Assembly: GCA_021772535.1 (NCBI GenBank) | Contig: JAJFLV010000025.1 | Coordinates: forward strand, 5,400-69,399 | Source of the DNA: Opitutales bacterium | GTDB taxonomy: Bacteria; Verrucomicrobiota; Verrucomicrobiia; Opitutales; UBA2987 | Direction of reading: 5' to 3' | Length of the DNA: 64,000 bases | In this document: positions 10,954 through 33,479 of the stretch, in pieces | Numbering within the stretch: the first letter of the stretch is position 1 | Layout of the letters: the number at the start of each line of letters is the position of its first letter | Translations under genes and position numbers: made by a program | The notes under the pieces: generated by a model | The model's input: only the letters and a program-made list of their open reading frames with translations | Databases searched by the model: none | Told to the model about the DNA's origin: nothing

Positions 10954-11212
10954 TGGTTGCCAAACTTAGCTCAATACTTCAAATTGACGCAGCAAATTAA
11001 GGTATTTTTCTCTTTGGAAGGCAATCTCCCCGTCATGGGTAATATCCCTGCTCAATCGGATCGCCTTTTAAACCATTTTAATGGATAAACCACCAGGGAA
11101 TTCAAATTTCCTGAATACCCAATAGGATAACTTCGAGGGTTTCGCTAAGATCATTTTTGGCTCTAACCGATAAGTATTTAAACTTATAGATCTTATCAAA
11201 TGTCTTAATATT

Positions 11213-11274
11213 CGAAACGAGTAAAAACAAAACTCTAATTGTTTACAATTCCTCGGTTCCTCTTCAAGGGTTTG
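11213..11274 (+). repeat. Putative recombination site A (left arm plus core)
   Basis: CGAAACGAG...AAACTCTAATTGTTTACAATTCCT-5nt-CCTCTTCAAGGGTTTG; homologous to sites B and C. Confidence 0.75.
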
Positions 11275-11522
11275 TGAATAAAAAGTAGAGTAAGTTTATT
11301 AACGATAAAACTTTTTTAGGATATTCTTAATAATCCGTCACAAGCTTGTACGGAAATTTCTGCATTTTTACTAACGTTATCATAAATGTTTTTGATGTTC
11401 TGAGAAATCGATAGTAACTTTTAAATATTCAACATAATCTAAAAACTTATGCAGATCAAGAACATGGACAACAACTTGGAGGTTTATAAGTTTTACACAT
11501 AGAAAGCTTATAGAAAATATTC

Positions 11523-11960
11523 ATGGGAGGTAAAAAACTTGCGGCAGGTATGCTAATTGTTAGTGCAGGTTTAGCAGGCATTGTTACATTAGGAATCGAG
11601 AGAACCCTTTTTAGGGAGCCATCAAGCTATATCAATGGTAAAGTTATCAAAGAATATGGTAATATAGAGCAAGCCATAGATGAAAATACACAATATGAAA
11701 AAGTAAATTATGGTATAATTGTCAAAACCGTTGATGGAAATTATACAATTAATATAAATTCAGAAGATCGAGCAGAGGATGGAGGGCCACAAGATATATA
11801 CAGTGTTGCAGCCACTATTCAAGTAGGGACGCGAATTAGATTCCCTAGACAACCCGGAAGCGTAATAAATAGGACCCGTGCAGACACATCGTCGGGTTTT
11901 TCATCTAGTAAAATAGGGATGCTTGATCCAGACGCAATTCAAATATTAGATCCAAATTAG
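11523..11960 (+). CDS. Hypothetical protein with N-terminal membrane anchor
   Basis: Hydrophobic N-terminus followed by a beta-rich domain; AT-rich codon usage. Confidence 0.65.
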   Translation: MGGKKLAAGMLIVSAGLAGIVTLGIERTLFREPSSYINGKVIKEYGNIEQAIDENTQYEKVNYGIIVKTVDGNYTININSEDRAEDGGPQDIYSVAATIQVGTRIRFPRQPGSVINRTRADTSSGFSSSKIGMLDPDAIQILDPN

Positions 11961-11967
11961 GATAAGT

Positions 11968-12855
11968 TTAAAATAATTTTTTGCAATCTATATAAAAATA
12001 TTCTCTTTGATTGGAAAAACGAACCATGGTTAATATCTTTAAAGTTATAATTACTAAAGAAACTTGAACAATTGTAAAAATAATTATAATTCTAAAATAT
12101 ATGGAGGCATATTGAACATGACTAAAAAATAAAAACATAAGAATAATTATTAAAATCGCAAACACTTTGCTGAGCGTAACTAGCCACTTCATTTTATTTT
12201 TCATGAATAATCTCCAGTGTTTTTCATAAATTTTTTTGTTATTATAATTTGTTGCTAATTTACAACATTCGAGTCGTTGGATAAAACGATGACAACTATC
12301 AGAATAAAATATTCCAAACGCCATCACGACTGACATTGTTATAACAAAAGCCTCATCTTTATCAATGGTAACGTTTTTGAAATAATAAAAAAGTCCTGCT
12401 CCTAATATAAAGTAATTTGCAAAGTACCCAATATTGCCTAAATGTTTCCAAGATCCAGGTAGTATCATATCTCTGAACTTTGCAGGTAAGACGTAATTAG
12501 CACCCAAGTGGACATTTGCCTTCTTTTCATGGTACTTTATTCTTTCTTGCCTCAAAACAAGGCAACTCTTAGAAAATAAGATGATATGAGAAATTTTGTG
12601 TGAAAGAAAAGACATAGCAAACCAACCAAGTAAAAATACTACTATCGTCATTCCTACCCCCGTTGCTGAAAGTTCCGGAGTGTCTTTTTTTCCGACTAAA
12701 AATCCTGAAATCGCAAAATAACCAGATAACACTGTTAGATATAGTTGAGTAACCCACTTAGACTGCTGTGTGTGTGAATTTAAACTATTCCATGATTCAT
12801 CGTATTCTCGATCGAGTAAGTAAATATAATTATGATCAGCATCCATATTTCCCAA
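11968..12855 (-). CDS. Multi-pass membrane protein (about 6 TM)
   Basis: Paired hydrophobic helices; 295-aa ORF in AT-rich DNA; start uncertain. Confidence 0.7.
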   Translation of the reverse strand: MGNMDADHNYIYLLDREYDESWNSLNSHTQQSKWVTQLYLTVLSGYFAISGFLVGKKDTPELSATGVGMTIVVFLLGWFAMSFLSHKISHIILFSKSCLVLRQERIKYHEKKANVHLGANYVLPAKFRDMILPGSWKHLGNIGYFANYFILGAGLFYYFKNVTIDKDEAFVITMSVVMAFGIFYSDSCHRFIQRLECCKLATNYNNKKIYEKHWRLFMKNKMKWLVTLSKVFAILIIILMFLFFSHVQYASIYFRIIIIFTIVQVSLVIITLKILTMVRFSNQREYFYIDCKKLF

Positions 12856-13000
12856 CCTATTTTTCCAATAGTCTTTTAAAGTACTCTTTTAATTTGAGAA
12901 AAGCCAATTAGAGCATCAATGTTCTTATGTCAACTAATATAATTTAGCATGTTCTGGTCCTAAATACTTAAAGCGAATGAAAGAAAAGCACTTACATTAA

Positions 13001-13252
13001 CTACCTTTTGTAAATCCTACTTCTTTTATCAAAAACTCTGACAAATACAATTTTCTCTTTATTATCAATATCAGCAAGAATCCTGTAATCCCCAATTCTC
13101 AGTTTATAATAATCTCCTTCAAAATGAGTTAGATACCTTGAGGGATATTCTGCTATCTTATCCAGCTTAATCAAAATTCTTTTCGCAATCTCCCTAGGCA
13201 GTTTTTCTAAATATTTGAGTGCTTTTTTATCCCACTCTATTGAATAAGTCAT
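13001..13252 (-). CDS. relE: RelE/ParE family type II toxin
   Basis: YSIEW...YKLRIGDYRIL...VFDKRSRIYK signature. Confidence 0.9.
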   Translation of the reverse strand: MTYSIEWDKKALKYLEKLPREIAKRILIKLDKIAEYPSRYLTHFEGDYYKLRIGDYRILADIDNKEKIVFVRVFDKRSRIYKR

Positions 13253-13446
13253 TTTCCAAGAATAATTTTCTTAACTTTTTGTTGAGATACGTAATCTGAT
13301 CTTTTTCTTGCTTCACTCAGCTCTTTTTTTGCCCAATCAGATAATTCTCCTTCATCATCTGATTCTCTTTTCAACAATAGGATATCTTTTATAAAAGCCA
13401 AATCTTTCTTTATTTCATCTAAATCCTTCGCTATTTGTTGTGCCAT
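13249..13446 (-). CDS. Cognate antitoxin (archaeal-type)
   Basis: ATGA overlap with relE; GELSDWAKKELSEARKR motif; paralogue at 33725. Confidence 0.8.
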   Translation of the reverse strand: MAQQIAKDLDEIKKDLAFIKDILLLKRESDDEGELSDWAKKELSEARKRSDYVSQQKVKKIILGK

Positions 13447-13538
13447 TTTAATTCTAATAAGAATTAGTTTATAAATTTATCCAACGAATTATAGATAAAT
13501 ATATATACAAGCACCACATAAATAATACACAAAGATTA

Positions 13539-13625
13539 GAACGAGTTAAAATTCAAAACTCTAAACGTTTACAATTCCTCCGAACCTCTTCAAGGGTTAT
13601 AGGAAATGTTAACTGTTGAGGGTTT
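13539..13625 (+). repeat. Putative recombination site B (full dyad)
   Basis: Left arm 13556-13579 and right arm 13601-13625 are inverted repeats (20/25 aligned matches) around core CCTCTTCAAGGGTT at 13585-13598. Confidence 0.8.
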
Positions 13626-13764
13626 ATCTCTTATTCCATAAAACTATAAAATTTATCAATAATATTATTCCTATAATAAATAATATAAGTCCAATAAATC
13701 CACCACTCAATATGCCTCTAACCCCAAATTCAACAACATCTTTAAACTCAGTCTCATTCATCAT
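13624..13764 (-). CDS. 46-aa single-TM protein (below ORF-track cutoff)
   Basis: Manual translation MMNETEFKDVVEFGVRGILSGGFIGLILFIIGIILLINFIVLWNKR; TATA-like TACTTATAAG upstream. Confidence 0.55.
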   Translation of the reverse strand: MMNETEFKDVVEFGVRGILSGGFIGLILFIIGIILLINFIVLWNKR

Positions 13765-13792
13765 ATAATCTCCAAATTATCTTATAAGTATA

Positions 13793-14035
13793 TTATCTAA
13801 CTCCAAGGGTTCTTCTTTTCTTATGTATTCCTCTATGTGTGCTCTTTTTCATAACTGATAGATTAGATTTTTGATTGTTGTCTTTATTGCCATCTTTATG
13901 ATGAACTTCATATCCTTTCCATATCCTTCCTCCAACTTTCTTTTCTGCTACTCTCTTATGGACTGAACGAGTTGTTCCATCACTATCTTTGAATACTTTA
14001 TATCCACTCTTATTTCTTCTAAACTTAAAAGCCAC
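13793..14035 (-). CDS. Small HNH endonuclease
   Basis: VHKRVA...EVHHKDGNKDNNQKSNL...HRGIH. Confidence 0.85.
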   Translation of the reverse strand: MAFKFRRNKSGYKVFKDSDGTTRSVHKRVAEKKVGGRIWKGYEVHHKDGNKDNNQKSNLSVMKKSTHRGIHKKRRTLGVR

Positions 14036-14080
14036 AAATATTAAGAGTAAAGATAATTTAAATATCTTCCTTAGCCTTAT

Positions 14081-14656
14081 TCAATTGAGTAAAGCAAAAA
14101 ACCAAGGAGTATATTTAGCAGCAATTAAACCTACCTGTTTTATTAACTCACCAGCATTTTCTCCACTTTCTTTTAACGTATTAAATTTTTCCAATATTCC
14201 AAATAATTTCTTTTTATTTGGTTCATCCAATTCATTATCGTTTTTTATTAATTGCCTTAGTACATTTATTTTAGAATTGTCCTGAACTTGAATTATAGGA
14301 GATTGGTTTCCTGTTGTTTGTGCAATTTGAAACTTCGAACTGTTGTTAACATTCGTTTGGCTATGAATATTCTGAGAAATTTCGGCCTTTTCCTTAAAAT
14401 AATCCCTTTCTCCCAAAATTACCTCCATACCTTTGTCTATTAATTTTATTTCATCATCTGATATCCAATGTTCGTTAATAAATAAAGGATTCTTCCAATT
14501 AATATATTCTTTTTTTATTAAGTATCTTAATAATTCTCTTAATTCATCTCCTTTTATATCACATCTTTTTTCCAATTGTTTAAATGAAATTTTTTCTTGT
14601 ACTTTATCTAACATTGCTAATACTTCCATACCATAAAGTAGTGTTTCGGATTCCAT
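14081..14656 (-). CDS. Hypothetical protein with N-terminal winged helix
   Basis: ISFKQLEKRCDI..ELRELLRYLIKKEYI wHTH-like segment; low-complexity linker; helical C-terminus. Confidence 0.65.
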   Translation of the reverse strand: MESETLLYGMEVLAMLDKVQEKISFKQLEKRCDIKGDELRELLRYLIKKEYINWKNPLFINEHWISDDEIKLIDKGMEVILGERDYFKEKAEISQNIHSQTNVNNSSKFQIAQTTGNQSPIIQVQDNSKINVLRQLIKNDNELDEPNKKKLFGILEKFNTLKESGENAGELIKQVGLIAAKYTPWFFALLN

Positions 14657-14667
14657 TTCTTTTTATT

Positions 14668-15120
14668 TTATATGTTACACTTAATAAACTCTTTTTTATG
14701 AGGAGTTGTTTCTCCCCACCATTCAATTTTCAATCCATTTTTTTCAATTATCTCATCAGTTAGATCAGTTCCTAAATCAAAAGACGAAACAGTATTTGGA
14801 GGAATAAAGTCACAATGGAATTTAACCCTATCATGAGAATCTACTTCTATTTCTCGAATTCTTTCACATTGCTCATCGACAAAATAGTCGGTACCATAAC
14901 TGTCCGTTTCAACACTCCAAAGGTAAATAAAAAAATTCTTCCCAGAAAAATCTGCTTTATTGTTAAAAAAGACTTCTAGTGTATAGTTTGCATTTAGTCC
15001 TTCTGAAATCTTACAACTAACATCTATATCAGTTGATGGTTTTAGTTGAGAAGGAATCCAAAGACCAATTAGTATAATTATTACTCCAAGAATTACTTGA
15101 ATTTTAATTTCTTTATTCAT
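14668..15120 (-). CDS. Membrane-anchored hypothetical protein
   Basis: N-terminal TM followed by a beta-rich domain. Confidence 0.65.
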   Translation of the reverse strand: MNKEIKIQVILGVIIILIGLWIPSQLKPSTDIDVSCKISEGLNANYTLEVFFNNKADFSGKNFFIYLWSVETDSYGTDYFVDEQCERIREIEVDSHDRVKFHCDFIPPNTVSSFDLGTDLTDEIIEKNGLKIEWWGETTPHKKEFIKCNI

Positions 15121-15251
15121 TTTTTAGGAATGTTCCAGGACCTCGATTTACATCTAGCGCATGAGATCGACAATTTTAGAGTTTTCCATTTGTGGTTACA
15201 CCTTTCACATTTACAAGAATATACTTTCCCTTTTTGAACTTTGTATGACAT
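15117..15251 (-). CDS. 44-aa zinc-ribbon protein (below ORF-track cutoff)
   Basis: Manual translation MSYKVQKGKVYSCKCERCNHKWKTLKLSISCARCKSRSWNIPKK; CxxC..W..CxxCxSxxW pattern; ATGA overlap with the next gene. Confidence 0.75.
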   Translation of the reverse strand: MSYKVQKGKVYSCKCERCNHKWKTLKLSISCARCKSRSWNIPKK

Positions 15252-15322
15252 ATTATTGCTTATACTACCAAAGTAGTAAAGTTTATATAGTTTATTGTTC
15301 TTTAGAATTTAAGCTAGTTCAC

Positions 15323-16081
15323 ATGAAAAAATTAATAATTAATGCTCCGATTAGAACGTTGATTTATCAATGTAATAAGTGGAGACCACACGCGATACCA
15401 ATAGATGAAATTGAAAATTTAATGGATGCTTTTGATAGACTTCCAAAACGTCACAAACTAAATGATAAAGATAAGTGGGCAGAATTTATAATTAAAAGAA
15501 ATAAAGTCATATTTGCTACAAGCTATTATCTAGCCCTAAGACCTCAAGAAGCGGTTGGTATACATCTTAATGATGTAACAAAAGATCAATTCGGTAGATA
15601 TTGGATTCAGATAAGAGGAGAAAACAATAAGAGAAAGAAGTCTAGGTTGTTACCAGTTCCTAAAGAATTAGCAATTATCTTTTATGGTTTCTTTAATGAG
15701 TTTAAGTATAAAGATTTCTGGAAAGATTCTAAGTGGGCCTTCCCTTCCTTTATGGGTAAGAATAAACATCTTGGTAGAGCAAGGTGGAATGATATCTTTC
15801 AGTTAGCGATAAAAGAAGCTGGTTTGTGGAGATCTCATCCGACAAAAGAAGGAAGAGGATTATATACAGCTCATTCTATAAGACATGCACGAGCGATACA
15901 TTTGCTTGAAGCAAGTAATTTCGATCTCTGGACCGTAGCAAATATCTTAGGTCATGGAAGAGTTGATGTTACTGCTTCTTACTTACATATGTGTCCTAGT
16001 ATTCAAGAACACATCTGTGATGTAATGAATGTTAGCTTAAAAGATAAGAAACATGGTCCCGTTATAGTCCCTAATTGTTAA
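15323..16081 (+). CDS. Tyrosine recombinase (XerC/D-like catalytic domain); probable start 15323
   Basis: LRPQE, K, HSIRH, LGH and Y catalytic residues; AAAGTTTATATA box upstream. Confidence 0.85.
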   Translation: MKKLIINAPIRTLIYQCNKWRPHAIPIDEIENLMDAFDRLPKRHKLNDKDKWAEFIIKRNKVIFATSYYLALRPQEAVGIHLNDVTKDQFGRYWIQIRGENNKRKKSRLLPVPKELAIIFYGFFNEFKYKDFWKDSKWAFPSFMGKNKHLGRARWNDIFQLAIKEAGLWRSHPTKEGRGLYTAHSIRHARAIHLLEASNFDLWTVANILGHGRVDVTASYLHMCPSIQEHICDVMNVSLKDKKHGPVIVPNC

Positions 16082-16313
16082 ATATAATTTTTATTTTTAA
16101 TTCTTTATGAAAAGCTCAGTCTGGATGTTGAAGTTACAAGAAGGAGAATTACGATTACATCCATTCTTGAAAGAAAAGAAAGATGAAATCAAAAGGAAAA
16201 AGAAAAGGAAAAAGTAAGATGATATATTTGAAAGTCCCCTTTATTGTTAAGGAAACTAAGAATAGTTACGACCTTGTCTGTCCTATTCATAAATTAGTTG
16301 TGGAGATTGCATA

Positions 16314-16727
16314 ATGGCTGCAGATATCTATAAATTTGTAGTTATAATAGCAGGATTAACAATTCTATTCACTTTATCAGGAATGGAAACTGGAATAGGA
16401 TTATTATTAGAAAAATCAGGAGTAGATATTGTAAAGAATCCTCAGAATATTGCTCTTAGTAATCTATCATCTACACTTATAGCAGTATTGGTAGCCGCAG
16501 GTGTTGGAGGTATTGCTATAGGATTCATAACAAAGACATCTCCCGTAAATTTCTTATTAGTAGGATACGCTACATTATTAATTAGTTTTGTAGCTGATAT
16601 TGTAGTTATAGCAAACTATGCGTTTAGCTTACAAGTTTGGGCTGGATGGGTTGTATTAGCTATTTTAACTCCCTTAGCATTTGGATACTTACACTCAGTT
16701 ATAAGTTGGTGGGGGGATAAAGCATGA
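16314..16727 (+). CDS. Multi-TM protein, putative viral membrane/structural protein
   Basis: About 4 TM helices; first of three co-oriented, closely spaced genes. Confidence 0.7.
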   Translation: MAADIYKFVVIIAGLTILFTLSGMETGIGLLLEKSGVDIVKNPQNIALSNLSSTLIAVLVAAGVGGIAIGFITKTSPVNFLLVGYATLLISFVADIVVIANYAFSLQVWAGWVVLAILTPLAFGYLHSVISWWGDKA

Positions 16728-16981
16728 GCTTCATAGAACCCTTAGACTTTTATCAGATCTTTGTAAATACTTTTGCAGGTAGTATCACAATCTTTAGTTT
16801 TGTTGGAATAGTTCTTATCTCTGGTTTAGCTGCAAGATTCAAGATGCCTAATATTGTCTTCGGAGTTATGTTAATTATATACGCAATGATTTTCTCTGAC
16901 TATGTCAAAGAATTATATTTAATAGCAATCCTAATAACTGGCTTCCTTGCGTTCAACGCATTTGCACAGTTATTCAAATAA
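16724..16981 (+). CDS. Small multi-TM protein, putative viral
   Basis: About 3 TM; ATGA overlap. Confidence 0.7.
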   Translation: MSFIEPLDFYQIFVNTFAGSITIFSFVGIVLISGLAARFKMPNIVFGVMLIIYAMIFSDYVKELYLIAILITGFLAFNAFAQLFK

Positions 16982-16983
16982 AT

Positions 16984-19398
16984 ATGGCTAAATCAATACC
17001 ACAACAACAGCAAAATCTTAGATTTGCGGCAGGATTACTAGGGCAACAAGAAACTCAAGTAGCAGCTAGGCAAGAAGAGATTAAGCAAGTTAAAGATCAA
17101 CTATTATTAGCTAGAAGTAAGTTATCAAGTCAGCAAGTTCTAAGAAATATAAGAGATCAAAACCAACAACAAAAGAGAAATCTAGCAGTTGCGCAAATTA
17201 GTCAAATAAGAGAAGAGGTAGAAAAGAAATCTAGAGAGATACAACCAATAGTTGCACAAATAACTGAAAGAAGAGGTTTAGTCCAGGAAGCCCAAGAACA
17301 ATTAGCTAAATTGGAAAAAGCAAGAAGAGAAGGGATTCCGTTATTAATAGAAGCAAGAGAGCAAGGAATTAATCAAGTTGTTCAATCTTTTGAAACAGAA
17401 CTGGGAAGACCTTTAACAGATGCGCAGAAACAAAATATTACTAAACAAATAATAAGCGGTCAAACTACTATTAAGATTCCCGCTACAAATCAATTCGGAC
17501 AACAAGACGGTAGGAATAATCTATTTTTCGAGAAGTTACCGACCATAGCACCACAATCTGTATTAGTTAATCAAAGTAATAAAGGTGTTTTATCTACAAT
17601 TGGAGAATCAATTACTAGCCGTTTTGCTCTTTCTGTTGGACAACCAACAGCAGCAGTTTCAAACATAACAAGTTTACCTCAATTAGTAAACGTAGTAGCA
17701 CAAAGAGAAAAAGATATTCTTGCTCAAAAGAAAGAGTTTGTTGCAAGAAATTTAAATGCTCCCATAAGAAACGTAACAGTAAATGAATTATTATCTACAA
17801 ATAAACAGATAGTTGAATTAGATGATAGAATTGGAGGGTTTGTTAAGGTAACACCAGAAGGTAATATAGAAAAAGATCTAACCAGAAGAATATTTGCGTT
17901 AAGAGATAGAGTTAGTGGAAATGTAGAAGTGATTAATACAAACGCTCCAAGATTAGCTGAATTAGTTGGAAGAGGAGTTCCCGCTCCTGCTGCAGCTGGT
18001 ATTGCTGGAGTTGATTTTCTAGTACAGCAATTAGATGAAAGATTTGTTGAACCAACTTTAGATAAAATAAGTATTCAAGAAGAATCAATATTAAGGAAAA
18101 AAATACCTTTTAGTTTTGGGGAATTGGCTGCTTTTATTGCTATTAGTCCTCTTATAGAAACCGCAGCTGCAGCTAGGGCAGTTTCCAAACAGAAGGCTAA
18201 ACCTAGTTCTCAGCAAGCTAACAAGAAAAAACTTGATGCCTTAAAGAAGAAATTAAAAGAATTAAGAGATGAGGAATTGAAAAAGTTTAGGGAAATACAG
18301 CGAAAAAACATAAAGAATAGTGCTTTAACTGAAACAGAAAAAGCTAATGCTTTATTGAGGTTAGACGCAACTATTTTAGAAGCTAAAACTGGTAGAAGTG
18401 TTATTACTGAATCTGGAGCAGTAGATCTTAGAGCAGTGGAAGAGGCCCTTGCTAGTTTAAGAAAAAGTAAAAAGAAACTACCAGAGATTTCAGAAGCCAC
18501 ACTAGAGTTTGCTTTAGAGAAAACACCCGCTCAATTAGAGGGTTCTGCTGCTGGATCTGGAATAGTCCAACAAAGTATATTCTTTAAAGAACCAGCAAGA
18601 CCTAAAATGGTTGGAGGAGAGGGAGTTGAAGAGAGCGAATTTGCTGGAACAGGACAGTTTGAGAGAACTGAAGAGTTAACTGGAATCGCTCAAGCAATTC
18701 AACCATTATCTAAAAGTAATTTATTCTTTAAGCAAGATACTAAACTTAATGCTTTACAAGATACATCTCAATCCCAATTACAAAGAACACAACAAAGCCA
18801 GGTACAAAAGCAATCTCAGAATGTATTAACATTACAAACTAATTTACTTGGACAATCAACTTCTCAAGTTCAGAGACAACAACAAAAACAGAGATTGGCT
18901 CAAGCACAAAGATCTGTACAAGCACAGAGACAATCTCAACTACAAGCATTAGGGCAAGGACAAGCATCTAAGTCACAAACAAGAAGTAAAGGAAAAAGGA
19001 AAATTAGGATCCCTCCACCATTTATTTTTTCTTTACCTGGAGGATTTGATAAAGAAGTTTTACTAAGCGCTGTAAGAAAAGTTAAAGGTGTGCAACCACA
19101 GATAAGACAAAAAGGGGCTTGGAGAGACTTAGGTAATCCAACTGACTTTCTTAAAGCTAAGAGAAAAGCAATTTCTTTTACAGATAAAAATCTTGCAGCC
19201 AGTTTTAGATTAAAGCTAGGAAGTAAGGTACTACCTATCGGTATCTTACCTCCTAGCTTTAGGCCCTCTAAATCAAATTCAAAAGTAGGTGTCGAGAAAC
19301 GAAGGTTTAGATTAGATTCTAGCTCGGAAGTAAATCAAATTTTAGGACTAAAGCGAAAAGCTAGTAAAAATTTAAATTTATTTAGGAAAAGGAGGTAA
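16984..19398 (+). CDS. 804-aa Gln/Lys-rich coiled-coil protein, putative virion-associated
   Basis: Long coiled coils, Q-rich tract, basic C-terminus (LAASFRLK...FRPSK...VEKRRFRLDS). Confidence 0.75.
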   Translation: MAKSIPQQQQNLRFAAGLLGQQETQVAARQEEIKQVKDQLLLARSKLSSQQVLRNIRDQNQQQKRNLAVAQISQIREEVEKKSREIQPIVAQITERRGLVQEAQEQLAKLEKARREGIPLLIEAREQGINQVVQSFETELGRPLTDAQKQNITKQIISGQTTIKIPATNQFGQQDGRNNLFFEKLPTIAPQSVLVNQSNKGVLSTIGESITSRFALSVGQPTAAVSNITSLPQLVNVVAQREKDILAQKKEFVARNLNAPIRNVTVNELLSTNKQIVELDDRIGGFVKVTPEGNIEKDLTRRIFALRDRVSGNVEVINTNAPRLAELVGRGVPAPAAAGIAGVDFLVQQLDERFVEPTLDKISIQEESILRKKIPFSFGELAAFIAISPLIETAAAARAVSKQKAKPSSQQANKKKLDALKKKLKELRDEELKKFREIQRKNIKNSALTETEKANALLRLDATILEAKTGRSVITESGAVDLRAVEEALASLRKSKKKLPEISEATLEFALEKTPAQLEGSAAGSGIVQQSIFFKEPARPKMVGGEGVEESEFAGTGQFERTEELTGIAQAIQPLSKSNLFFKQDTKLNALQDTSQSQLQRTQQSQVQKQSQNVLTLQTNLLGQSTSQVQRQQQKQRLAQAQRSVQAQRQSQLQALGQGQASKSQTRSKGKRKIRIPPPFIFSLPGGFDKEVLLSAVRKVKGVQPQIRQKGAWRDLGNPTDFLKAKRKAISFTDKNLAASFRLKLGSKVLPIGILPPSFRPSKSNSKVGVEKRRFRLDSSSEVNQILGLKRKASKNLNLFRKRR

Positions 19399-19405
19399 TT
19401 TAATC

Positions 19406-19606: not shown

Positions 19607-19636
19607 GTTTATCTAGGAAAAAAGGATAATAAAACT

Positions 19637-19834
19637 ATGAAAAGATCACATCTAATTAGTTGGATTGTTTATTATATCTTTGTTATCTTAGTTTTTTTTA
19701 GAAGTGGTGGGTTTATCTGGCAAGAAGGCTGGAATGTTTATGGTTATATAATTGGTTCACTAATCTTTATATTTGGAGTTCCTATCATTCCCTCGCTGAT
19801 TCTCTTTTATATTTTAAGGAAATTCGATAAGTAA
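19637..19834 (+). CDS. Small 2-TM protein, paralogue of 19406
   Basis: Shared ISWIxYYI...GGF...FGxPI...LIxFYIL. Confidence 0.65.
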   Translation: MKRSHLISWIVYYIFVILVFFRSGGFIWQEGWNVYGYIIGSLIFIFGVPIIPSLILFYILRKFDK

Positions 19835-19923
19835 GCAATTATAGCTAGTTAAATATCACATATTCTTTTTGATTTGGGCTATTTCATAGTCATTTGTTAA
19901 TCTTTACATTAAACTATCCCAAA

Positions 19924-20511: not shown

Positions 20512-20699
20512 TATTTTAATTCTAAAGCCTTCAAGATACGCTTTACGTTTTCATCTAAAAATACAACATCTTCTCTCGCGAGCTTCTGTAAGAATCTACC
20601 TAAAGATCCCCTACCTTCAAACCCAGCACGTTTTGCTTTATGGATTAGCCTTTGCTTATCTTCTGGGTAAAGCCATGCTTTAACTATTAGTTTATTCAT
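20511..20699 (-). CDS. Ribbon-helix-helix-like DNA-binding protein
   Basis: Beta-strand plus two helices pattern; overlapping operon. Confidence 0.55.
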   Translation of the reverse strand: MNKLIVKAWLYPEDKQRLIHKAKRAGFEGRGSLGRFLQKLAREDVVFLDENVKRILKALELK

Positions 20700-20959
20700 C
20701 CTAAATATTCCCCTGTCTTTTTCTTTACTTTGAAAAAACCTAAGTAATTCTTTATCTCTTCATGCTTCAACATCTTAAGAGCGAGATCTGCCAGGTCTAT
20801 TGTATTAAGAACCTGAGAAGTTAGTACTAGATCACCAACCGCCACCTGCTCATGGCCATTTAATGGCTGGCTATTAATAATAACAGGAGCTACTTGCTTT
20901 TTCTTGTTTGTTTTTTTTATTTCTTCCATTTGTTTTTTATTTCCCTTTGACTTAACCAT
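20696..20959 (-). CDS. Hypothetical protein
   Basis: Tightly packed in the operon with an ATGA overlap. Confidence 0.6.
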   Translation of the reverse strand: MVKSKGNKKQMEEIKKTNKKKQVAPVIINSQPLNGHEQVAVGDLVLTSQVLNTIDLADLALKMLKHEEIKNYLGFFKVKKKTGEYLG

Positions 20960-20965
20960 ATATAA

Positions 20966-21832
20966 TTATATAATTGTGCTATGATTAGTGTATGAACCCC
21001 CTTTATCCTTGAATTTCCGTAGTATATTGAATATTTGCGTGTTGCCCACGCTGATTTTATACTCTTTAAACAAATCTACCAATCTTTTTCTACTAACTTT
21101 AAGCTCTTTAGTCATAATATAGATCATTTTGTTTCTATCTTCATACTTACTAGCTGGATTGCTATCAAAATCTGCTTCCATTAGGGCCTTTTCTTTCAAT
21201 TCTTTGTATTTCTTTTCTATTTTTTCATCACCCAGAGCAAATTTCCCGTAGAATCTTCCTCTGTTTCGTGTGTGAACGGAACGATATTCATAAGTCTTAG
21301 AACCCAATAAGTATAATCTTTTCTTCTTAGATCTATTATAAACCATATAATAACCTCTTCTAGATTTGTTTTCATATACATTGATCAATACCTTAGCTCT
21401 AAAAACTGCAACATACTTGTCTAACAAGAAGAAAGTCGGCAATACTACAATCACAAATAAGTTTTTTTGTCTCATTTGCATCATTAATGATATTAACATT
21501 CTATTTATGCCTGAAAGAGAAGCTCTACTTGATAAACCAGTAAATGCTTCATCATAAATTACTACTTGACCTTTCTTAGCATTCATTATTTGTTTCTTGA
21601 ATTGTTCTGCAGAAAAACAAATTCTCTCAAGATCGAGTGTAGAATCTATAAATCTTCCAATTTGTAAAGCTAAAGTAGATTTTCCAGCACCCTCATTACC
21701 ATCAATACATAAAACAAAGTCCCTATCTTCCTTTTGTAAGTTTTCTTTAATATTACTTAATTCTTTATGTATTCTATCCTGCATAAAATATTCTACTTGT
21801 CTATCTGCTGGTTCATTAATTTTTAATATCAT
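20966..21832 (-). CDS. P-loop ATPase of the archaeal-virus/Zot-like type
   Basis: Walker A GNEGAGKS, Walker B VIYDEA, MRQKNLFVIVVLP..FLLDKY. Confidence 0.8.
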   Translation of the reverse strand: MILKINEPADRQVEYFMQDRIHKELSNIKENLQKEDRDFVLCIDGNEGAGKSTLALQIGRFIDSTLDLERICFSAEQFKKQIMNAKKGQVVIYDEAFTGLSSRASLSGINRMLISLMMQMRQKNLFVIVVLPTFFLLDKYVAVFRAKVLINVYENKSRRGYYMVYNRSKKKRLYLLGSKTYEYRSVHTRNRGRFYGKFALGDEKIEKKYKELKEKALMEADFDSNPASKYEDRNKMIYIMTKELKVSRKRLVDLFKEYKISVGNTQIFNILRKFKDKGGSYTNHSTII

Positions 21833-23418
21833 TTTGAACCCCCAAAGAAATCATAGCCACATTTCTTACAATACCAATTAATTCCATCTTGAGTAAATGG
21901 AGCAAATTCATCACCACATTTAACACACACAGGGTTTATTTCCTGTGGTTTAATCTTTTCCACATCATTTCTATCCTGTGTGTGTCTTAGTTTTTCATTA
22001 TTTTTAGACAATTTAACAAAATCATTAGCAGAAAACCCATCATACACACCCTTGTTTTCTTGAGGAAAAGTCTTTTCCTCATCATTTGTACCCTGTGTGT
22101 GATGTAATAATTCAGAAAATTCAGGTTTTATCTCAACATAATACATAGGTCTTCCACTACCAATTTCTAAATTTTTAAGAGAAACAACACCTAAGATTTC
22201 AAAGATTTTCATAGTTCTTCTTGCAGTTTCAGAAGAACAACTTAATTCAGACTGTATGTTTTCTGTTGTTAGTTTTCCTTCATGCTTTAGAAGTAATTTC
22301 AGAAACTCAAATCTATCATGAGGCATTGATGAAAATGTAACTGCTCTAACTATTTCTAAATCTTCAGATTTCAAAAAAGTTCTTCCATTAATTAAAGCAT
22401 TTCCTTTTGCAAGATTATAAAGAGAATTTATTGCTCTTGGTGGTTCTTCAATTATCGGAAAGTTATGCTGATAATCTTCTCCTTCTCCTTTCCAAATCAT
22501 TAAAGTACCTCTAAGTTTTGCTAGAAGTTGAGCATACTTGACAATTTCTTGTAAGATAAAAATATCTTGTTCAGCATTCCATTCTAAAGAACGAACTGGA
22601 TATTTCTTAAAATGATTATCAAGAAAGTTTCTTACAGCACCCCTACATATTTTTATTTTTTCTTCATAAGCATTTGAACGGAACATTTCAACATAATCCG
22701 CATTTTCTCTATTTTTTTCAGACATATTCAAAAAGAAAAGTCTATTACCAATCTTTCCCATGATGTTCCAAACATTAGCTCTTAGAGGAGTAGTTGCACC
22801 AATCCATCCAAACTTATAGTCTCCAGAATAACCTCTATGTCCATGAACTCCACTATCACGATTCAGGCCTTCGCCATCTAAAACTCTTGTTAAGATTGAA
22901 AAGTTATCAAGTAGTTTATCTTTTGGAGCTTCAAATAAAGGAGCAAGTTCTGGAGAAAGTAAGACCTTATTCCTCAATTTTGGTAATAAATCAACTTGTC
23001 CTAGATCATCAGCTTTTACATTTGCAGAATGAGATACAAAAGACTTAGGAGTAAAATCATCTGAAACATAACTTAAAGGGTGATTGTAGAAGAAAGATAA
23101 CACTGTTGTTTTCTCTCCGCTTGGAGCACCAACAAGATTAAGACTAGGACAACCATTTAAGTTCTTTAATGAAAGAGATGCGTATAGAGATAAACATGCT
23201 TTTGTTTCAAACCAGACTGAAGAAAAATTATCTTTAACATATTTCTCTAAACTTTGAATTTCCTTAATATCTTTTTTAGGAATATAATAACTAAATTCAA
23301 ATTTTGGACTTTCTATCTTTTTTAATGGTTCAGTCTTCAAGGCACCCATTGACTTAAGCTGTTTACGGGTTCTTTCTTTCATAAATGATGTTGCTTCTTC
23401 TTGAGTTATTTCTTTCAT
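21829..23418 (-). CDS. MCM-like AAA+ replication protein with C-terminal wHTH and Zn ribbon
   Basis: GAPSGEKTT, FTPKSFVSH, DLLPKL, LTRVLDG, WIGATTP; CVKC/CKKC tail. Confidence 0.7.
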   Translation of the reverse strand: MKEITQEEATSFMKERTRKQLKSMGALKTEPLKKIESPKFEFSYYIPKKDIKEIQSLEKYVKDNFSSVWFETKACLSLYASLSLKNLNGCPSLNLVGAPSGEKTTVLSFFYNHPLSYVSDDFTPKSFVSHSANVKADDLGQVDLLPKLRNKVLLSPELAPLFEAPKDKLLDNFSILTRVLDGEGLNRDSGVHGHRGYSGDYKFGWIGATTPLRANVWNIMGKIGNRLFFLNMSEKNRENADYVEMFRSNAYEEKIKICRGAVRNFLDNHFKKYPVRSLEWNAEQDIFILQEIVKYAQLLAKLRGTLMIWKGEGEDYQHNFPIIEEPPRAINSLYNLAKGNALINGRTFLKSEDLEIVRAVTFSSMPHDRFEFLKLLLKHEGKLTTENIQSELSCSSETARRTMKIFEILGVVSLKNLEIGSGRPMYYVEIKPEFSELLHHTQGTNDEEKTFPQENKGVYDGFSANDFVKLSKNNEKLRHTQDRNDVEKIKPQEINPVCVKCGDEFAPFTQDGINWYCKKCGYDFFGGSK

Positions 23419-23786
23419 TCTAAATCCTCCTTAACTGGCTTCGCATAAAGTATGGCCTCTTCTTCTGGTGTAAGTTCTGTTTGTTCAATTTCTTTGATTT
23501 TTTTAGTAGAAACCAGCTGAACAGGTTGACCATTTTCACTCCAGGATTTTGTAACAATAATAAAATCTCCACCCGTTGCCCATTTACAAATCTGTTTAAT
23601 CGTACCATAAGCTAGGTTTGATAACTTAGCAAGTTGGTATTTAGAAATAGGTTGTTTTGCTCTAATTAAGTTTAGAACAAGATTATTCCTTTCAACTACG
23701 CCATTATAATCCTTTTCTTGTAACTTTTTAACTAGGGTTTTAACGTCATGTTCGCTAAAAAAGGTATTAGGAGTCATACTGGGCAA
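23415..23786 (-). CDS. Winged-helix DNA-binding protein
   Basis: PISKYQLAKLSNLAYGTIKQI HTH; ATG start possibly at 23777. Confidence 0.7.
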   Translation of the reverse strand: MPSMTPNTFFSEHDVKTLVKKLQEKDYNGVVERNNLVLNLIRAKQPISKYQLAKLSNLAYGTIKQICKWATGGDFIIVTKSWSENGQPVQLVSTKKIKEIEQTELTPEEEAILYAKPVKEDLE

Positions 23787-23928
23787 AACCTCCCTTGAGA
23801 AATAGAATTATAGCTCTTTCGTAAAAAGCGACATATTTTTAAAGTTCTGTGATTTGTTCCCATTGTAAATTAAGAAGGGGTGATTGTCCTGTGAAATTTC
23901 AATCACCTCTTTGCTATGAAATTGAAGA

Positions 23929-24150
23929 TTATTTCTTGAGCTTCTTTATTCTCCCATCCATTGTATTTTTTGATTCGATGTTATCATGTTCCTCTAGCCA
24001 GATTACTAATAGGTTTTCAATCAGAGGTGAAACTTTTCCACCGAAGTAATTAATTTTATATCTAACTTTATCTATAATACTTCTACGAATTGAGATTGTA
24101 ACATTTACTTTTTTTTCCTCATTAGTCTTTTCTTTAACTTGCTTAGACAT
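23929..24150 (-). CDS. RHH/CopG-like regulator
   Basis: KVNVTISIRRSIID...VSPLIENLL; CAAAGCTTATAAG box upstream. Confidence 0.65.
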   Translation of the reverse strand: MSKQVKEKTNEEKKVNVTISIRRSIIDKVRYKINYFGGKVSPLIENLLVIWLEEHDNIESKNTMDGRIKKLKK

Positions 24151-24384
24151 ACATGATTCTATGTAAGATTACTTATAAGCTTTGTGGGTACAAAGATTTT
24201 TATCGACGATAAGAACTCTAAAATACCTCAATGTCATTTTAGAATAGTTCGGTTAAATAGACATAAATTTAAAATCTTCTTACATTAGTCTTTAACATGA
24301 ATTGGGGTTATATGGCTCTTCTTGCGCTGGCAATTGTAATATCAATTATTTCGATAGTTGTTATAAATTTATTTATCTAATTTA

Positions 24385-25533
24385 TTACTTGGTCCTAACA
24401 TACATTTTTTTATTCTTCTCAAAAACTTTAACTGTTGGAAACTTTTTCTTAAAACGTTTCTCCATTGCTATTGTTTTATCATTGATTCTTTCTTCAAACT
24501 TATCCATAAGATCTTTCATATCTCTTATTTTAGACTTTAAGTTTCCCACCTCAAGTTCTAATTTATGTTTTGTCTTTGGGTTGATCTCTTTAATCTTATA
24601 TACATTCTCCAATAAACTCTTAGCAACATCTTCTGAATTTATATGAGAGTAAATTGCAGTCATTCTACTATCTTTACTGTGTCCTGCAAATTTCTTATGT
24701 ATTTGCTCAGGCAATATTTTATACAACTCATTTAATCTACTATGTCGTAAAAGGTAAGGATATATTGGTCTGCTTAGTTTTGATTTCTTTGACAACCTTC
24801 TTAGAACCATAGACAAATAACTTTTATCTATGGATTTCTTTCTATCTCGAATTGTAGGAAATACATAATCGCTATTTCTTATGTTCTTAAAGGCCCATTC
24901 TTGTTTCCATCTTTTTAAGTGTACAACACTATCTTTAACCAAGATAGTTCTCGCGCTATCTTTCTTCTTAGAATATAAATGTACCTTGCATAATCCATCA
25001 TCAGTAAATTTCAAATCTTCCCACTTTAATTCCCTTATTTCTTGTGGTCTTGCTCCACTTTCATATAACAACGTAATAAGGGCTTTATCTCTTAACCTTT
25101 CTGCTGTTCTGAGCAAAAGCTCAAGTTCTTCTTCTGTTACTAAATTATTTTCATTAACCTTCTTTTCATTTAATCCATTTTGATTTTTTACATCAATAAA
25201 TTCATCAAACCTTATACTCCAATCTCTAAAGTTCCACCTCAAGAATTTCTTTATATGAATTTTAATTCCGTTCTTTGTCCATTTCTCTCTATCTGAATTA
25301 TTTAATAAACTTAGGTAATTTCTTAAATCTTCTAAATTTATGTCATCAAAATTCTTTTTGACAAGAAGCCTAAATTGTACAACATTTCTTCTTATATCTT
25401 CTAATTTCTTTTCTTTTGCATTTATAGAACAATAATCTATGAACTTATCCAATTTATTTTTTTCTAGAATATCAAGGTTTCTATATGCTTTTTTCAACTC
25501 CCCCCTTCCGTACTTAGGATAAACTCCTTTCAT
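24385..25533 (-). CDS. Tyrosine integrase IntA (archaeal-type, C-terminal coiled coil)
   Basis: SGARPQE, SKK, YLLRHSR, AGH, IYSH; adjacent to site C. Confidence 0.9.
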   Translation of the reverse strand: MKGVYPKYGRGELKKAYRNLDILEKNKLDKFIDYCSINAKEKKLEDIRRNVVQFRLLVKKNFDDINLEDLRNYLSLLNNSDREKWTKNGIKIHIKKFLRWNFRDWSIRFDEFIDVKNQNGLNEKKVNENNLVTEEELELLLRTAERLRDKALITLLYESGARPQEIRELKWEDLKFTDDGLCKVHLYSKKKDSARTILVKDSVVHLKRWKQEWAFKNIRNSDYVFPTIRDRKKSIDKSYLSMVLRRLSKKSKLSRPIYPYLLRHSRLNELYKILPEQIHKKFAGHSKDSRMTAIYSHINSEDVAKSLLENVYKIKEINPKTKHKLELEVGNLKSKIRDMKDLMDKFEERINDKTIAMEKRFKKKFPTVKVFEKNKKMYVRTK

Positions 25534-25559
25534 AAAAGAGAATAATAAAGGAAGTTTAT

Positions 25560-25630
25560 AAACCCTCGTTTGTTAACACTTACTTACCCCCTCTTCAAGG
25601 GTTTGACTTTTTGTAAGCGTTTACGGGTTT
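25560..25630 (+). repeat. Putative recombination site C (full dyad) between divergent integrases
   Basis: AAACCCTCGTTTGTTAACACTTACT-5nt-CCTCTTCAAGGGTTTG...TTGTAAGCGTTTACGGGTTT; same arm spacing as site B. Confidence 0.8.
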
Positions 25631-25681
25631 TGTGAAGGAAATGTGTATTAACTTTAAAAAACTCGTTTCGACTTAACAAAG

Positions 25682-26866
25682 ATGAAAGATCACTATCCCG
25701 AATATCGAAAAGAGAATATTACCACTGAGTATATTTATTCACATTTAGTTAAGGCTGAACAAGAAATAGTGGACAAATTTTTGACTTATTGTTCAATTAC
25801 CGCAGGAAAGGGAAAACTTAAAGACATCAAAACCAATATTCTTCAGTTTCGGGATATAGTTGAGAAACATTTTGAAAAAAATACGTTAAATGATGTCAGA
25901 GCCTATCTCGCAATTCTTAACCAATCGGGGCGAGCGAAATGGACAAAGAACGGAATTAAAATCCATGTGAAGAAATTTCTGAAATGGAAATTCAAAGATT
26001 GGTATGAAAGATTTAACGAACTAGCAGATATAAAGCTATCCAAAAATCCCAGAAACGAAGAGCGGATAAATGACAGCACTCTCGTAACAAAAGAGGAGTT
26101 ATCGAAACTGCTTCGCATAGAGGATACAATAAGGGGCAAGGCCCTCTTGTTCACATTATATGAAACAGCGGCTAGACCGCAAGAAGTCAGGCTCTTACGG
26201 TGGTCGGGAGTCGAATACCTGGAAGATAAAATTACAAAAATTTCTCTATATTCAAGGAAAACGGGGCATTCGAGAGCGGTCTTCGTTAAGGACGCAACCA
26301 TTCATCTTAAGAGATGGGAGCAAGAATATATCAATTCTGAAAGAAAATTAACAGACTATGTATTTCCGTCCAAGAAGGCTTCCCATGAACCAATGGGAAA
26401 GAGTGCTTTAGAGGTTTGGTTGCGGAGATTATCGCACAAAGCAAAGCTAGGCAGAACCATATATCCTTATTTGCTTCGCCACACCCGGTTAACTGAAATT
26501 TGGGATAAACTTGGTGATGTCATCGTCCACAGGAAATTTGCCGGACATAGCCAGGACAGCTCAATGACTTCACTTTACGTCCATCTCAGCGACAAGAATG
26601 TAAAAGATTCTATTTTAAGGAAAGTTTATCAAGTTGATGAATCACATCCAAGCAAAACACAGGAATTGGAAAACGAAAACAAGCATTTGCGGGCGGAAGT
26701 TAAGAACATGCGGTCAATCAAGGAAGAGTGGCATTTACTAAAACGGCACTTCCCAATGATCCAAGAGGTTTTTGCAAAAGCAAAATCTGTTGAACAGCTA
26801 GAGGCCGCTTATCGGAATAAAAGTGAAGAGGAGTTGGTTTTGCAAAATACAAGGGCTGCTCAGTAA
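25682..26866 (+). CDS. Tyrosine integrase IntB, paralogue of IntA
   Basis: Shares KWTKNGIKIH.KKFL.W, RPQE, YPYLLRH.RL and KFAGHS with IntA; visibly higher GC. Confidence 0.9.
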   Translation: MKDHYPEYRKENITTEYIYSHLVKAEQEIVDKFLTYCSITAGKGKLKDIKTNILQFRDIVEKHFEKNTLNDVRAYLAILNQSGRAKWTKNGIKIHVKKFLKWKFKDWYERFNELADIKLSKNPRNEERINDSTLVTKEELSKLLRIEDTIRGKALLFTLYETAARPQEVRLLRWSGVEYLEDKITKISLYSRKTGHSRAVFVKDATIHLKRWEQEYINSERKLTDYVFPSKKASHEPMGKSALEVWLRRLSHKAKLGRTIYPYLLRHTRLTEIWDKLGDVIVHRKFAGHSQDSSMTSLYVHLSDKNVKDSILRKVYQVDESHPSKTQELENENKHLRAEVKNMRSIKEEWHLLKRHFPMIQEVFAKAKSVEQLEAAYRNKSEEELVLQNTRAAQ

Positions 26867-27036
26867 CATCGATATAGTGAAAATTAAAACCGCCCTTCTT
26901 AAAGCAAAAGTGTCCTGAGACTTCAGTTGTTCGTTGTTATTACTCCCGGTATTTTACAAATAGAACTGGGGTATTAAAAATATCCCGCAATTAAATGAAG
27001 TCTCGAATCAGTTATAAAAAAGTTCAATCGTAATTT

Positions 27037-33445: not shown

Positions 33446-33479
33446 ATTTTAAATCACCTCATCATTTTCAAACACAAAT

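Follow-up and report, generated by a model that had tools for sequence, protein, structure and literature searches.

Within the 64,000 nucleotides of an Opitutales bacterium analyzed here (the window), an AT-rich block holds two units of likely DPANN origin, a 12-kb element and a 2.3-kb cassette, and on balance we favor their serial entry by site-specific recombination at an att site of a bacterial island, beside an archaeal-type integrase. The block is layered, comprising the two units and a separate resident integrase within an enclosing bacterial island of ~61 kb. The resident integrase and its site likely form a landing pad for archaeal DNA. The features of the block and its island are as follows:

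11128..11142 (+): degenerate att core copy, 11 of 15 letters matching the core; possibly the left limit of the array
11259..11272 (+): att site a, the 14-bp core CCTCTTCAAGGGTT with flanking arms
11273..13598: 2.3-kb cassette of four genes, no integrase
11523-11960 (+): membrane-anchored protein, 145 aa (cassette)
11968-12855 (-): membrane protein, 295 aa (cassette)
13001-13252 (-): RelE/ParE toxin (cassette)
13249-13446 (-): putative antitoxin (cassette)
13585..13598 (+): att site b, exact core, left end of the 12-kb element
13599..25603: 12.0-kb integrated element, satellite-like, bounded by cores b and c, 17 annotated ORFs
13793..14035 (-): HNH endonuclease, 80 aa (PF13392, E 6e-10)
15323..16081 (+): short tyrosine recombinase, 252 aa (PF00589, E 3e-15)
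16314..19834 (+): small hydrophobic proteins (137, 85, 66 and 65 aa), with hydrophobic segments, around a Gln-rich 804-aa protein; possibly a particle or membrane module
19924..20511 (-): short tyrosine recombinase, 195 aa (PF00589)
20966..21832 (-): AAA+ ATPase, 288 aa, of the type of spindle-shaped or budding archaeal viruses (phrog_5484, E 5e-6)
21829..23418 (-): predicted replicative AAA helicase, 529 aa, with winged helix and C-terminal Zn ribbon
24385..25533 (-): the element's own integrase, 382 aa (PF00589), TATA box 29 nt before the ATG
25590..25603 (+): att site c, exact core, right end of the 12-kb element
25682..26866 (+): resident integrase, 394 aa, GC 0.39 and GC3 0.40, outside the element
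33480..34294 (-): second archaeal-type toxin-antitoxin cluster (94-aa protein, antitoxin, RelE), same island
41590-42774 (-): integrase of the enclosing ~61-kb island
42832-42882: island attR, a 51-bp tRNA-Pro 3' repeat, 98% identical to the tRNA copy

Below, G000 is the genome containing the block, with C190, C5, C158, C67 and C60 among its contigs; G008 is a bacterial genome of another genus in three contigs, including C2; and L numbers denote the 89 related loci (731 kb in total) used for comparison. The sequencing runs, X1, X2 and a third, all stem from a single study and were used as assembled contigs and unitigs rather than raw reads, and the assembly may derive from X1.

The block differs markedly from its host in composition. 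GC is 0.28-0.36 over 11-26 kb vs. 0.505 for the genome, and the six lowest-GC of 1167 5-kb genome windows all overlap it, so that the AT-rich block of the original prediction is real. The drop in GC, described there as abrupt, has a gradual left edge (0.43, 0.375, and 0.337 over 9.5-11.5 kb). On the right, AT-richness stops at ~25.6 kb, which makes the last integrase a separate layer. Tetranucleotide profiles likewise set the block apart (correlation with the host r=0.40, vs. a minimum of 0.47 and a median of 0.77 for 148 host 14-kb windows), but they neither single out archaeal contigs nor identify the donor. The other low-GC regions checked, C67 and C60, carry mostly glycosyltransferase-like genes and are not archaeal-looking. 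The gene to the right of the block has 44 matches within G000 and matches in six of eight family relatives, which marks this flank as host-lineage DNA, in agreement with what had been claimed for that side. G000 has no assembled 16S gene, and models of Verrucomicrobia-type families matched the genome only with scores below their cut-offs.

Promoters also point to archaea. Of 12 leading genes chosen by eye (10 in the block and two at 33.7-34.3 kb), seven have a TATA consensus that begins 24-40 nt ahead of the start codon, compared with a mean of 1.0 in shuffled upstream regions; none of 5000 shuffles attained seven, and the rate among host control genes was 17/468. An SD-like motif occurs in just four of the 21 block genes, in line with the claim that many lack one. 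The five BRE/TATA motifs originally quoted are all present exactly, with 5' ends at 13482(-), 14069(-), 15278(+), 24184(-), and 25567(-), although the positions attached to them proved to be start codons.

The junctions between the units are recombination cores, a finding that supports inter-domain transfer involving an att array. The core, a 7-nt spacer between short inverted arms, has three exact copies in the window vs. 0.00 expected, which establishes the array as real, and four in the 3.9-Mb genome. A site homologous to a lies at G000:C190:4345, and a 199-bp, 81% match to G000:C190:4227-4425 starts directly after the degenerate copy at 11128..11142. When the two ends of the 12-kb element, each with its direct-repeat core, are joined in silico, they give a symmetric attP, in which 22 of 27 positions pair between the left arm of c and the right arm of b and the outer inverted repeat is perfect over 10 bp. 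Both the rejoined element ends (P=0.00035) and the site left behind (P=0.00075) are symmetric, but in its present form site c lacks symmetry (P=0.22). Site b in its present form is symmetric too (P=0.0012), which indicates that the arms share one consensus and gives only a weak hold on the sequence of events; there is no symmetry at sites a and C190 (P 0.07 and 0.50, respectively).

The resident integrase and the right arm of site c belong together. The 17-mer CCCTCTTCAAGGGTTTG occurs in two of 401 genomes of the order, at site c of G000 and upstream of the G008 orthologue, and the right arms of the two sites are similar. G008 has no array but a single core beside its integrase; a second exact 13-mer there was rejected as an att site, being a chance match without arms. 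Of the 89 related loci only L033 has the exact core, in a single copy upstream of the L033 integrase. Close homologues had no clear att array next to them, most of these loci being shorter than an element, and the long att pattern had no match in viral contigs. There is no tRNA gene at the att site; the core resembles the anticodon arm of archaeal tRNA-Glu, sharing 15 of 18 letters with L042. The contigs of the three runs contained no excised circle, empty site or recombinant joint.

The resident integrase starts 79 nt past the last core and reads away from the array. It is a paralogue of the element's integrase (43% identity) and shows 57% identity to G008:C2:586507-587664, whose sister it is, rather than that of the element's enzyme, in two trees (FastTree on 116 rows, 0.979; IQ-TREE in fast mode on 43 chosen rows, SH-aLRT 98.3). 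Among the 401 genomes the family profile matches only G000 and G008, and runs X1 and X2 both link the resident gene to the next host gene. It and its G008 orthologue have a TATA box 28-30 nt before the ATG, as does a PIN gene of G008, and no sigma-70-like promoter was scored upstream of the resident gene. Since both integrases keep these boxes, their higher GC may be that of the donor rather than the result of amelioration; amelioration was accordingly dropped as proof of age, as the archaeal-type genes of G008 could derive from a higher-GC donor. A contig scan of genomes with the resident integrase returned four Bacillus matches only, all spurious.

The integrase family occurs in archaeal chromosomes: homologues adjoin archaeal RFC and diphthine ligase genes that pass their cut-offs. 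Three integrase matches carry taxon labels, which together with those for RelE include 'archaeon' and Ca. Pacearchaeota; one of the three is a planctomycete. The family is also represented, on two other branches, in L048, L058, and L059, which look like bacterial contigs; some members adjoin tRNA genes, and elements of similar layout are present in L040 and L050. Three of four named-virus matches are archaeal viruses, the nearest named ones for the integrases being ThalV2 and GacPV1. The best NCBIfam match of the element's integrase is archaeal XerA, at 88 bits vs. the family cut-off of 220, and a dif/XerA identity was rejected (86-88 bits). This enzyme is intact, as its Arg, Lys, Arg-His, His, and Tyr columns are invariant in an alignment of 53 sequences (A1).

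In the cassette, the sole taxon-labeled one of 19 RelE matches is Ca. Pacearchaeota (58%). The 145-aa protein has bacterial clusters as nearest Atlas neighbors, at weak similarity, and a 29% identical homologue in the G008 island (pairwise E 7e-14). The ORFs of the 12-kb element show no obvious break, and GC3 is 0.17-0.26 in the four genes measured. Its ATPase has 905 homologues and is 43-56% identical to proteins of eight IMG/VR contigs; against 50,697 phage records the sole match is the distant Haloferax LSV-48N (26%), and among the 120 matches listed the only labeled one reads 'bacterium.' The helicase has 1736 homologues, with primase domains (Prim-Pol, AEP or Toprim) above cut-off in five of 11 scanned; it matches MCM2 only weakly (E ~0.06), has mixed or bacterial Atlas neighbors, and found no match in viral contigs. 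The 195-aa recombinase has counterparts in L039 (57% identity, similar in length) and in viral contig L018 (37%), so it is naturally short. Archaeal origin is likely, supported for the integrases and RelE by labels and marker neighbors and more generally by promoters; to this extent, and on few named matches, the DPANN-like character originally assigned to the block stands. For the ATPase, the helicase, and the 145-aa protein, the matches are unlabeled, mixed or bacterial.

The proteins of the possible particle or membrane module have no Pfam, PHROG or NCBIfam match. The 66- and 65-aa hydrophobic proteins are 48% identical to each other, the 804-aa protein has a weak match to an ORF of a viral contig (E 0.001), the four small proteins match no ORF of viral loci L018-L025, and viral-contig scans with the 137-aa protein returned nothing. 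No capsid gene was found in the element, nor any PHROG capsid match. Given the helicase, the packaging-type ATPase, and this lack of a detected capsid gene, in its native host the element would likely live as a plasmid-like satellite of budding or spindle-shaped viruses.

The enclosing island ends at tRNA-Pro, as does that of G008, and the two have SSB, winged-helix, and ATPase genes in common at 38-56%; beyond the integrase and the distant 145-aa homologue, no other block gene is common to both. A complete tRNA-Pro(GGG) lies at G000:C5:19216-19292, C5 and C158 overlap by 141 exact bases, and homology to two same-genus genomes begins at ~42983; no empty tRNA-Pro site was found in the two same-genus stretches examined. 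The RelE of the second toxin-antitoxin cluster is 65% identical to that of the block, and another copy of this cluster, 95% identical over 376 bp and differently deleted, sits at the C5/C158 joint.

The serial route would have begun when an ancestor of the island acquired an archaeal integrase with its att arm. Archaeal circles would then have reached the cell, likely as free DNA in a biofilm (ComEC and type IV pilus genes are present in the host), and those with the same 7-nt spacer would have entered the site by recombination, beginning with the cassette and ending with the 12-kb element, since the latter adjoins the integrase, as does the newest cassette in an integron. The catalyst would probably be the resident integrase, with the element's own enzyme as an alternative. 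As its promoters are archaeal, the element is probably stranded in the bacterium.

The main rival, which we regard as unlikely but serious, holds that the array and both integrases were built in a hotspot of a DPANN chromosome and entered once, as a fragment of ~16 kb, through illegitimate recombination into the island; the att sites would be relics, and nothing would recombine in the bacterium. The archaeal TATA box retained by the resident integrase suits this account, and archaeal-type genes without an exact core at 33.5-34.3 kb, on C5, and in the G008 island indicate that a route without att sites exists. It is opposed by the jump in GC3 from 0.17-0.26 to 0.40 at site c, by the presence of the sister integrase and the same core in a related island of bacteria whose only other counterpart of a block gene is the 29% homologue, and by the second att site elsewhere in the host. 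Furthermore, family scans found no housekeeping gene among the 21 block ORFs.

Origin from AT-rich bacterial DNA, whether of CPR bacteria, of their viruses or of bacterial elements that resemble budding viruses, such as IME1, with TATA-like boxes as by-products of AT-richness, is improbable. The lone ATPase label among the listed matches, the Atlas neighbors of the helicase and the 145-aa protein, and the failure of tetranucleotide profiles to single out archaeal contigs speak for it, and the available part of one report describes elements from bacteria that encode related ATPases as well as hydrophobic proteins (10.64898/2026.09.15.751708). Against it stand the TATA positions, which exceed composition-matched shuffles, the Ca. 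Pacearchaeota and 'archaeon' labels of RelE and integrase matches, the integrase homologues in contigs with archaeal marker genes, and the predominance of archaeal viruses among named-virus matches.

Mean depths of flank vs. block are 9.8 vs. 8.6, 3.3 vs. 3.5, and 0.5 vs. 0.3 in the three runs. A unitig of X1 (20861-28233) and a contig of X2 (26704-27437) both continue into host DNA. In X1 a 38-nt node of double depth covers site a; because the left junction lies in this node shared with C190, pairing there depends on the assembler. That short repeats joined an archaeal contig to bacterial ones, the chimera originally offered as an alternative, is very improbable: the repeat node at the left junction, the X1 unitig break near 20.87 kb, a block depth ~13% below the flanks in X1, and evidence consisting of assembled contigs only would fit it, but block depth tracks the flanks without a sharp step, a single unitig contains the right junction, which a second sample also bridges, DNA left of the C190 site is likewise bacterial, G008 has the same integrase and core in another genus, and the duplicated archaeal-type island genes have diverged by ~5%.

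Transfer from archaea to bacteria is usually inferred from single genes without a visible mechanism. For the serial, site-specific entry that we favor, the sequence itself displays the junctions, attP, and a candidate enzyme, which makes the route testable. It is integron-like, yet not an integron. Integron attC sites are single-stranded hairpins bounded by RYYYAAC and GTTRRRY, whereas those here, which by inspection have a central 14-bp core as their common identity, resemble double-stranded att sites sharing the same 7-nt spacer; TIGR02249 and NF011946 miss both the 382- and the 394-aa integrase (E<=0.001), which are thus not IntI. One of the units here, the 12-kb element, brings an integrase of its own, and the resident enzyme is archaeal-type. 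Archaeal integrative elements use XerA-related tyrosine integrases and undergo tandem accretion at one att site; as in these, the att site has inverted arms around a 7-nt spacer and the neighboring integrase reads away from it, but here there is no tRNA gene and the array sits in a bacterial island. The likeness to integrons, so far as an excerpt of their description extends, lies in a resident tyrosine recombinase beside the site, with tandem units upstream that are each bounded by a related site (PMC9668308), here the units at cores 11259, 13585, and 25590 next to a divergently read integrase, and in the recruitment of archaeal DNA into bacteria (Ghaly et al., 2022, PMC9668308).

With pSSVx, pSSVi, and SRCEs, as portrayed in part of their source, the element shares a plasmid-type replication protein, a spindle-virus AAA+ ATPase, and an incomplete virion module; pSSVx has the ATPase and lacks a capsid protein (10.1101/2025.02.15.638363). 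It differs in its 12 kb, vs. 2.7-9.0 kb given for SRCEs in the same excerpt (10.1101/2025.02.15.638363), in its three tyrosine recombinases and Gln-rich 804-aa protein, in its likely Pacearchaeota/Woesearchaeota donor, and in that it sits in a bacterium; no helper virus was found for it. The Asgard virus satellite NMV2S is likewise an archaeal satellite-like element connected to a bacterial partner genome; in the portion of that account available, the link rests on shared long reads with the mechanism unresolved (10.64898/2026.08.12.739948), whereas defined att sites, attP, and a candidate integrase are visible here in the assembled chromosome.

If this recombination works, it would constitute a second site-specific cross-domain route besides IntI integrons. 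The element would also provide a complete, delimited member of a DPANN element family and a possible clue to the cells neighboring these archaea. We tentatively speculate that the bacterial island family repeatedly took up DPANN integrase-att modules, forming an integron-like landing pad that captures whole archaeal elements. G000/G008, L048/Bythopirellula, and L058/L059 might then be its branches, and the clearest case could be the one described here, in which site-specific insertion would have placed an intact DPANN virus satellite in the chromosome of an Opitutales bacterium. If true, the captured elements would record contact of Pacearchaeota/Woesearchaeota with PVC bacteria and thereby point to hosts.

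The genome carrying the window (3.9 Mb, 90% complete, 1.2% contaminated) has a GC content of 0.505, against 0.28-0.36 over 11-26 kb. The six lowest-GC 5-kb windows of this genome (n=1167) all overlap this block, and the tetranucleotide correlation between block and host (0.40) is lower than for every one of 148 host windows; both profiles agree with the original prediction of a compositionally foreign stretch. The low GC stands; the predicted abruptness does not hold at the left edge, which is gradual, and the AT-rich part stops at about 25.6 kb instead of the proposed 26870. All five promoter motifs that had been quoted are present in the sequence. A TATA consensus lies 24-40 nt upstream of the start in 7/12 leading genes, which were picked by eye (shuffled upstreams, 1.0; host genes, 17/468), a count that is indicative, as two of the seven sit at the edge of the range and one relies on a mechanical start codon. 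The host part of the window carries repeats of its own, namely coding repeats of 378-408 nt in a signalling-gene region (53936-57111) and an inverted repeat of 26 nt (60966-61242), whose arms are 92% complementary and separated by 225 nt and which may be a miniature transposable element.

Exact copies of the core CCTCTTCAAGGGTT lie at 11259, 13585 and 25590 (sites a, b and c; 0.00 copies expected), and one on contig C190 completes the genome total of four.

Features of the att array and the adjoining integrase (window positions)
Between a (11259) and b (13585): cassette, 2.3 kb; 4 ORFs, including a RelE toxin and a putative antitoxin
Between b (13585) and c (25590): element, 12.0 kb; 17 ORFs, including an integrase (382 aa) beside site c, two short tyrosine recombinases, an HNH nuclease, small regulators, four small hydrophobic proteins, a Gln-rich 804-aa protein, an AAA helicase and an AAA ATPase
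25682-26866 (+): second, resident integrase (394 aa), outside cassette and element

When the element ends are rejoined (left arm of c, right arm of b), 22 of 27 positions pair, including an outer inverted repeat of 10 bp with no mismatch (P=0.00035, with random block pairs as reference), as would be expected of an attP. Those that the element leaves behind pair as well (P=0.00075), and the pairing of site c as found is not significant (P=0.22). Because site b as found scores too (P=0.0012), all att arms have one consensus. No excised form of the element was seen among the contigs of three runs. A degenerate core at 11128 may be the left limit of the array, and a 199-bp match to C190 starts directly after it. 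The att site on C190 (4227-4425, locus L137) has 81% identity with window positions 11142-11340 over 199 bp; it is flanked by a resolvase-like fragment and an IS-like contig end, far from every integrase of the family.

The stretch is present in three runs of one biofilm study, whose contigs we examined. Mean depths of flank and block show no sharp step in any of them (9.8 vs 8.6, 3.3 vs 3.5 and 0.5 vs 0.3), and the right junction lies inside a single unitig of run X1 (20861-28233), which takes in the two long integrases with site c and continues into two host genes. A contig of run X2 links the resident integrase with its right-hand neighbour, a gene whose family has 44 matches in the genome; the independence of the runs is limited, since X1 may be the assembly's source. 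An assembly chimera could draw on the left junction, whose pairing depends on the assembler because it runs through a 38-nt node common to C190, but bacterial DNA also lies to the left of the C190 site and the X1 unitig and X2 contig cross the right junction, so that this explanation is highly improbable. We are confident that the integration of archaeal DNA is real, and it is very likely an insertion across domains, whose junctions can be seen in the sequence and whose mechanism can be tested.

The archaeal origin of the block DNA is likely, with DPANN as the probable source, the taxonomic tests covering a minority of its genes. Taxon labels exist for 3/69 integrase homologues ("archaeon", 41%; Ca. 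Pacearchaeota, 35%; the planctomycete Bythopirellula, 35%) and for one of 19 RelE matches (Pacearchaeota, 58%). Among 80 metagenome loci of the integrase family, 13 flanking genes from 7 loci were tested, and those in L044 and L055 exceed the thresholds of the models for RFC subunits and for the diphthine ligase of archaea. Archaeal pleomorphic viruses provide two of the three named-virus matches of the integrase. Against an archaeal origin count the sole labelled ATPase match among 120 listed ("bacterium") and, weakly, the mixed or bacterial Atlas neighbours of the helicase and of a 145-aa protein. The predicted DPANN-like assignment gains from the labels, TATA boxes and archaeal marker genes and loses on these three proteins; a non-archaeal origin is very unlikely. 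In L042 and L044, tRNA-Glu genes lie directly upstream of family integrases (about 9880-9960), and their anticodon arm, to judge by resemblance, may be the source of the att core. On two archaeal contigs (L036:2900-3150, L055:2540-2710), the integrase is separated from scpA-like genes by a conserved non-coding stretch that looks structured and may be a common insertion target.

Primase domains are fused to 5/11 scanned homologues of the element's helicase. The AAA ATPase has 905 homologues, matches 8 IMG/VR contigs at 43-56% and finds its sole named-virus match in Haloferax LSV-48N. In the viral contig L018, the ATPase homologue adjoins two tandem hydrophobic hairpin proteins (8924-9402), which we take to resemble spindle-virus capsid proteins; in the element itself, family scan and hydrophobic-segment comparison revealed no gene of this kind. 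L040 and L050 are similar in layout to the element, which by analogy would fit a satellite of the pSSVx/SRCE kind (10.1101/2025.02.15.638363), with a hypothetical helper. A large group of AT-rich viral contigs (L018-L025, 27-49 kb), to all of which the ATPase is common, possibly represents DPANN viruses that have been little described and that would include the helpers of the element.

The integrase family profile matches 2/401 genomes of the order, ours and G008, which belongs to another genus, and the 17-mer core is present in the same two. The G008 orthologue of the resident integrase (57% identity) is preceded by the core at a distance of about 80 nt, with a similar right arm, and the two are sisters in two trees (0.979; SH-aLRT 98.3); the element's integrase forms no clade with them. 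Our island extends about 61 kb from a full tRNA-Pro on contig C5, which overlaps the window's contig C158 by 141 exact bases, to a 51-bp repeat at 42832. The G008 island likewise ends at tRNA-Pro, and SSB, winged-helix and ATPase genes are common to both, which by sequence are related islands. Ours holds an archaeal-type toxin-antitoxin cluster twice, about 5% diverged and with different deletions; that of G008 holds a PIN gene preceded by a TATA box, as well as a homologue, at 29% identity, of the first gene in the cassette.

Within our island, the doubled methyltransferase and toxin-antitoxin cluster (32666-34350 and C5:30584-31926/C158:1-284; 88% and 95% identical) apparently lacks the RelE pair in one copy and most of a 112-aa gene in the other. 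A HerA/VirB4-like ATPase (35804-37957) is followed by a chaperone-like module (38098-41084) of a short 511-aa DnaK (below cut-off), a vWA-like protein and a third, presumably GrpE-like protein; PADLOC gave no match for these three. The G008 island also contains what we assume to be an integron-integrase-like gene (L012, C2:603348-604364), split into two ORFs.

Contigs that look bacterial carry the family on two further branches, L048 (with Bythopirellula) and L058/L059; L048 retains the last tRNA bases upstream of its integrase, like the tRNA of archaeal contig L044. A search across the phylum, covering 400 other genomes, gave two more distant matches. In one genome of this phylum, a more distant family member (L140:6988-8461, G681:C20) shares an island of lower GC with a winged-helix gene and a small gene that looks archaeal.

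The att sites, attP symmetry, layering, common integrase and core, and enclosing island are direct observations, from which we lean slightly towards stepwise capture within the bacterium. An island lineage would acquire an archaeal integrase together with its site; archaeal circles would reach the cell afterwards, likely via DNA uptake (the genome carries ComEC and pilus ATPases), and recombine where the spacer matches, the newest ending up beside the integrase. The acting enzyme could be the resident or the element's own integrase. Arrival of the archaeal DNA in one piece is the main rival and less likely. The resident integrase has a GC3 of 0.40, against 0.17-0.26 in six block genes, but it and its G008 orthologue keep an archaeal TATA box, so that the higher GC may mirror the donor rather than time in the host; the region before the resident gene contains no scoring sigma-70-like promoter.

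The array is laid out like that of an integron, but it has no IntI match in a family scan and its sites look like att sites, so that it appears not to be an integron. As published, bacterial integrons recruit archaeal cassettes (PMC9668308), an Asgard satellite is linked to a bacterial genome by a mechanism not known there (10.64898/2026.08.12.739948), budding-virus-like elements of Dehalococcoides have related features (10.64898/2026.09.15.751708), and for Thermoplasmatota and Nanobdellota together only 30 provirus regions are reported (PMC13573593). A comparable case is absent from the accessible parts of PMC12647753, PMC10936187 and PMC13573593, and the full-text literature, mostly non-subscription, yielded no bacterial island with a DPANN integrative element or such an integrase-att module. 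Beyond stepwise capture, we tentatively entertain that bacterial islands may repeatedly have gained DPANN integrase-att modules, landing pads through which they would capture archaeal mobile elements.
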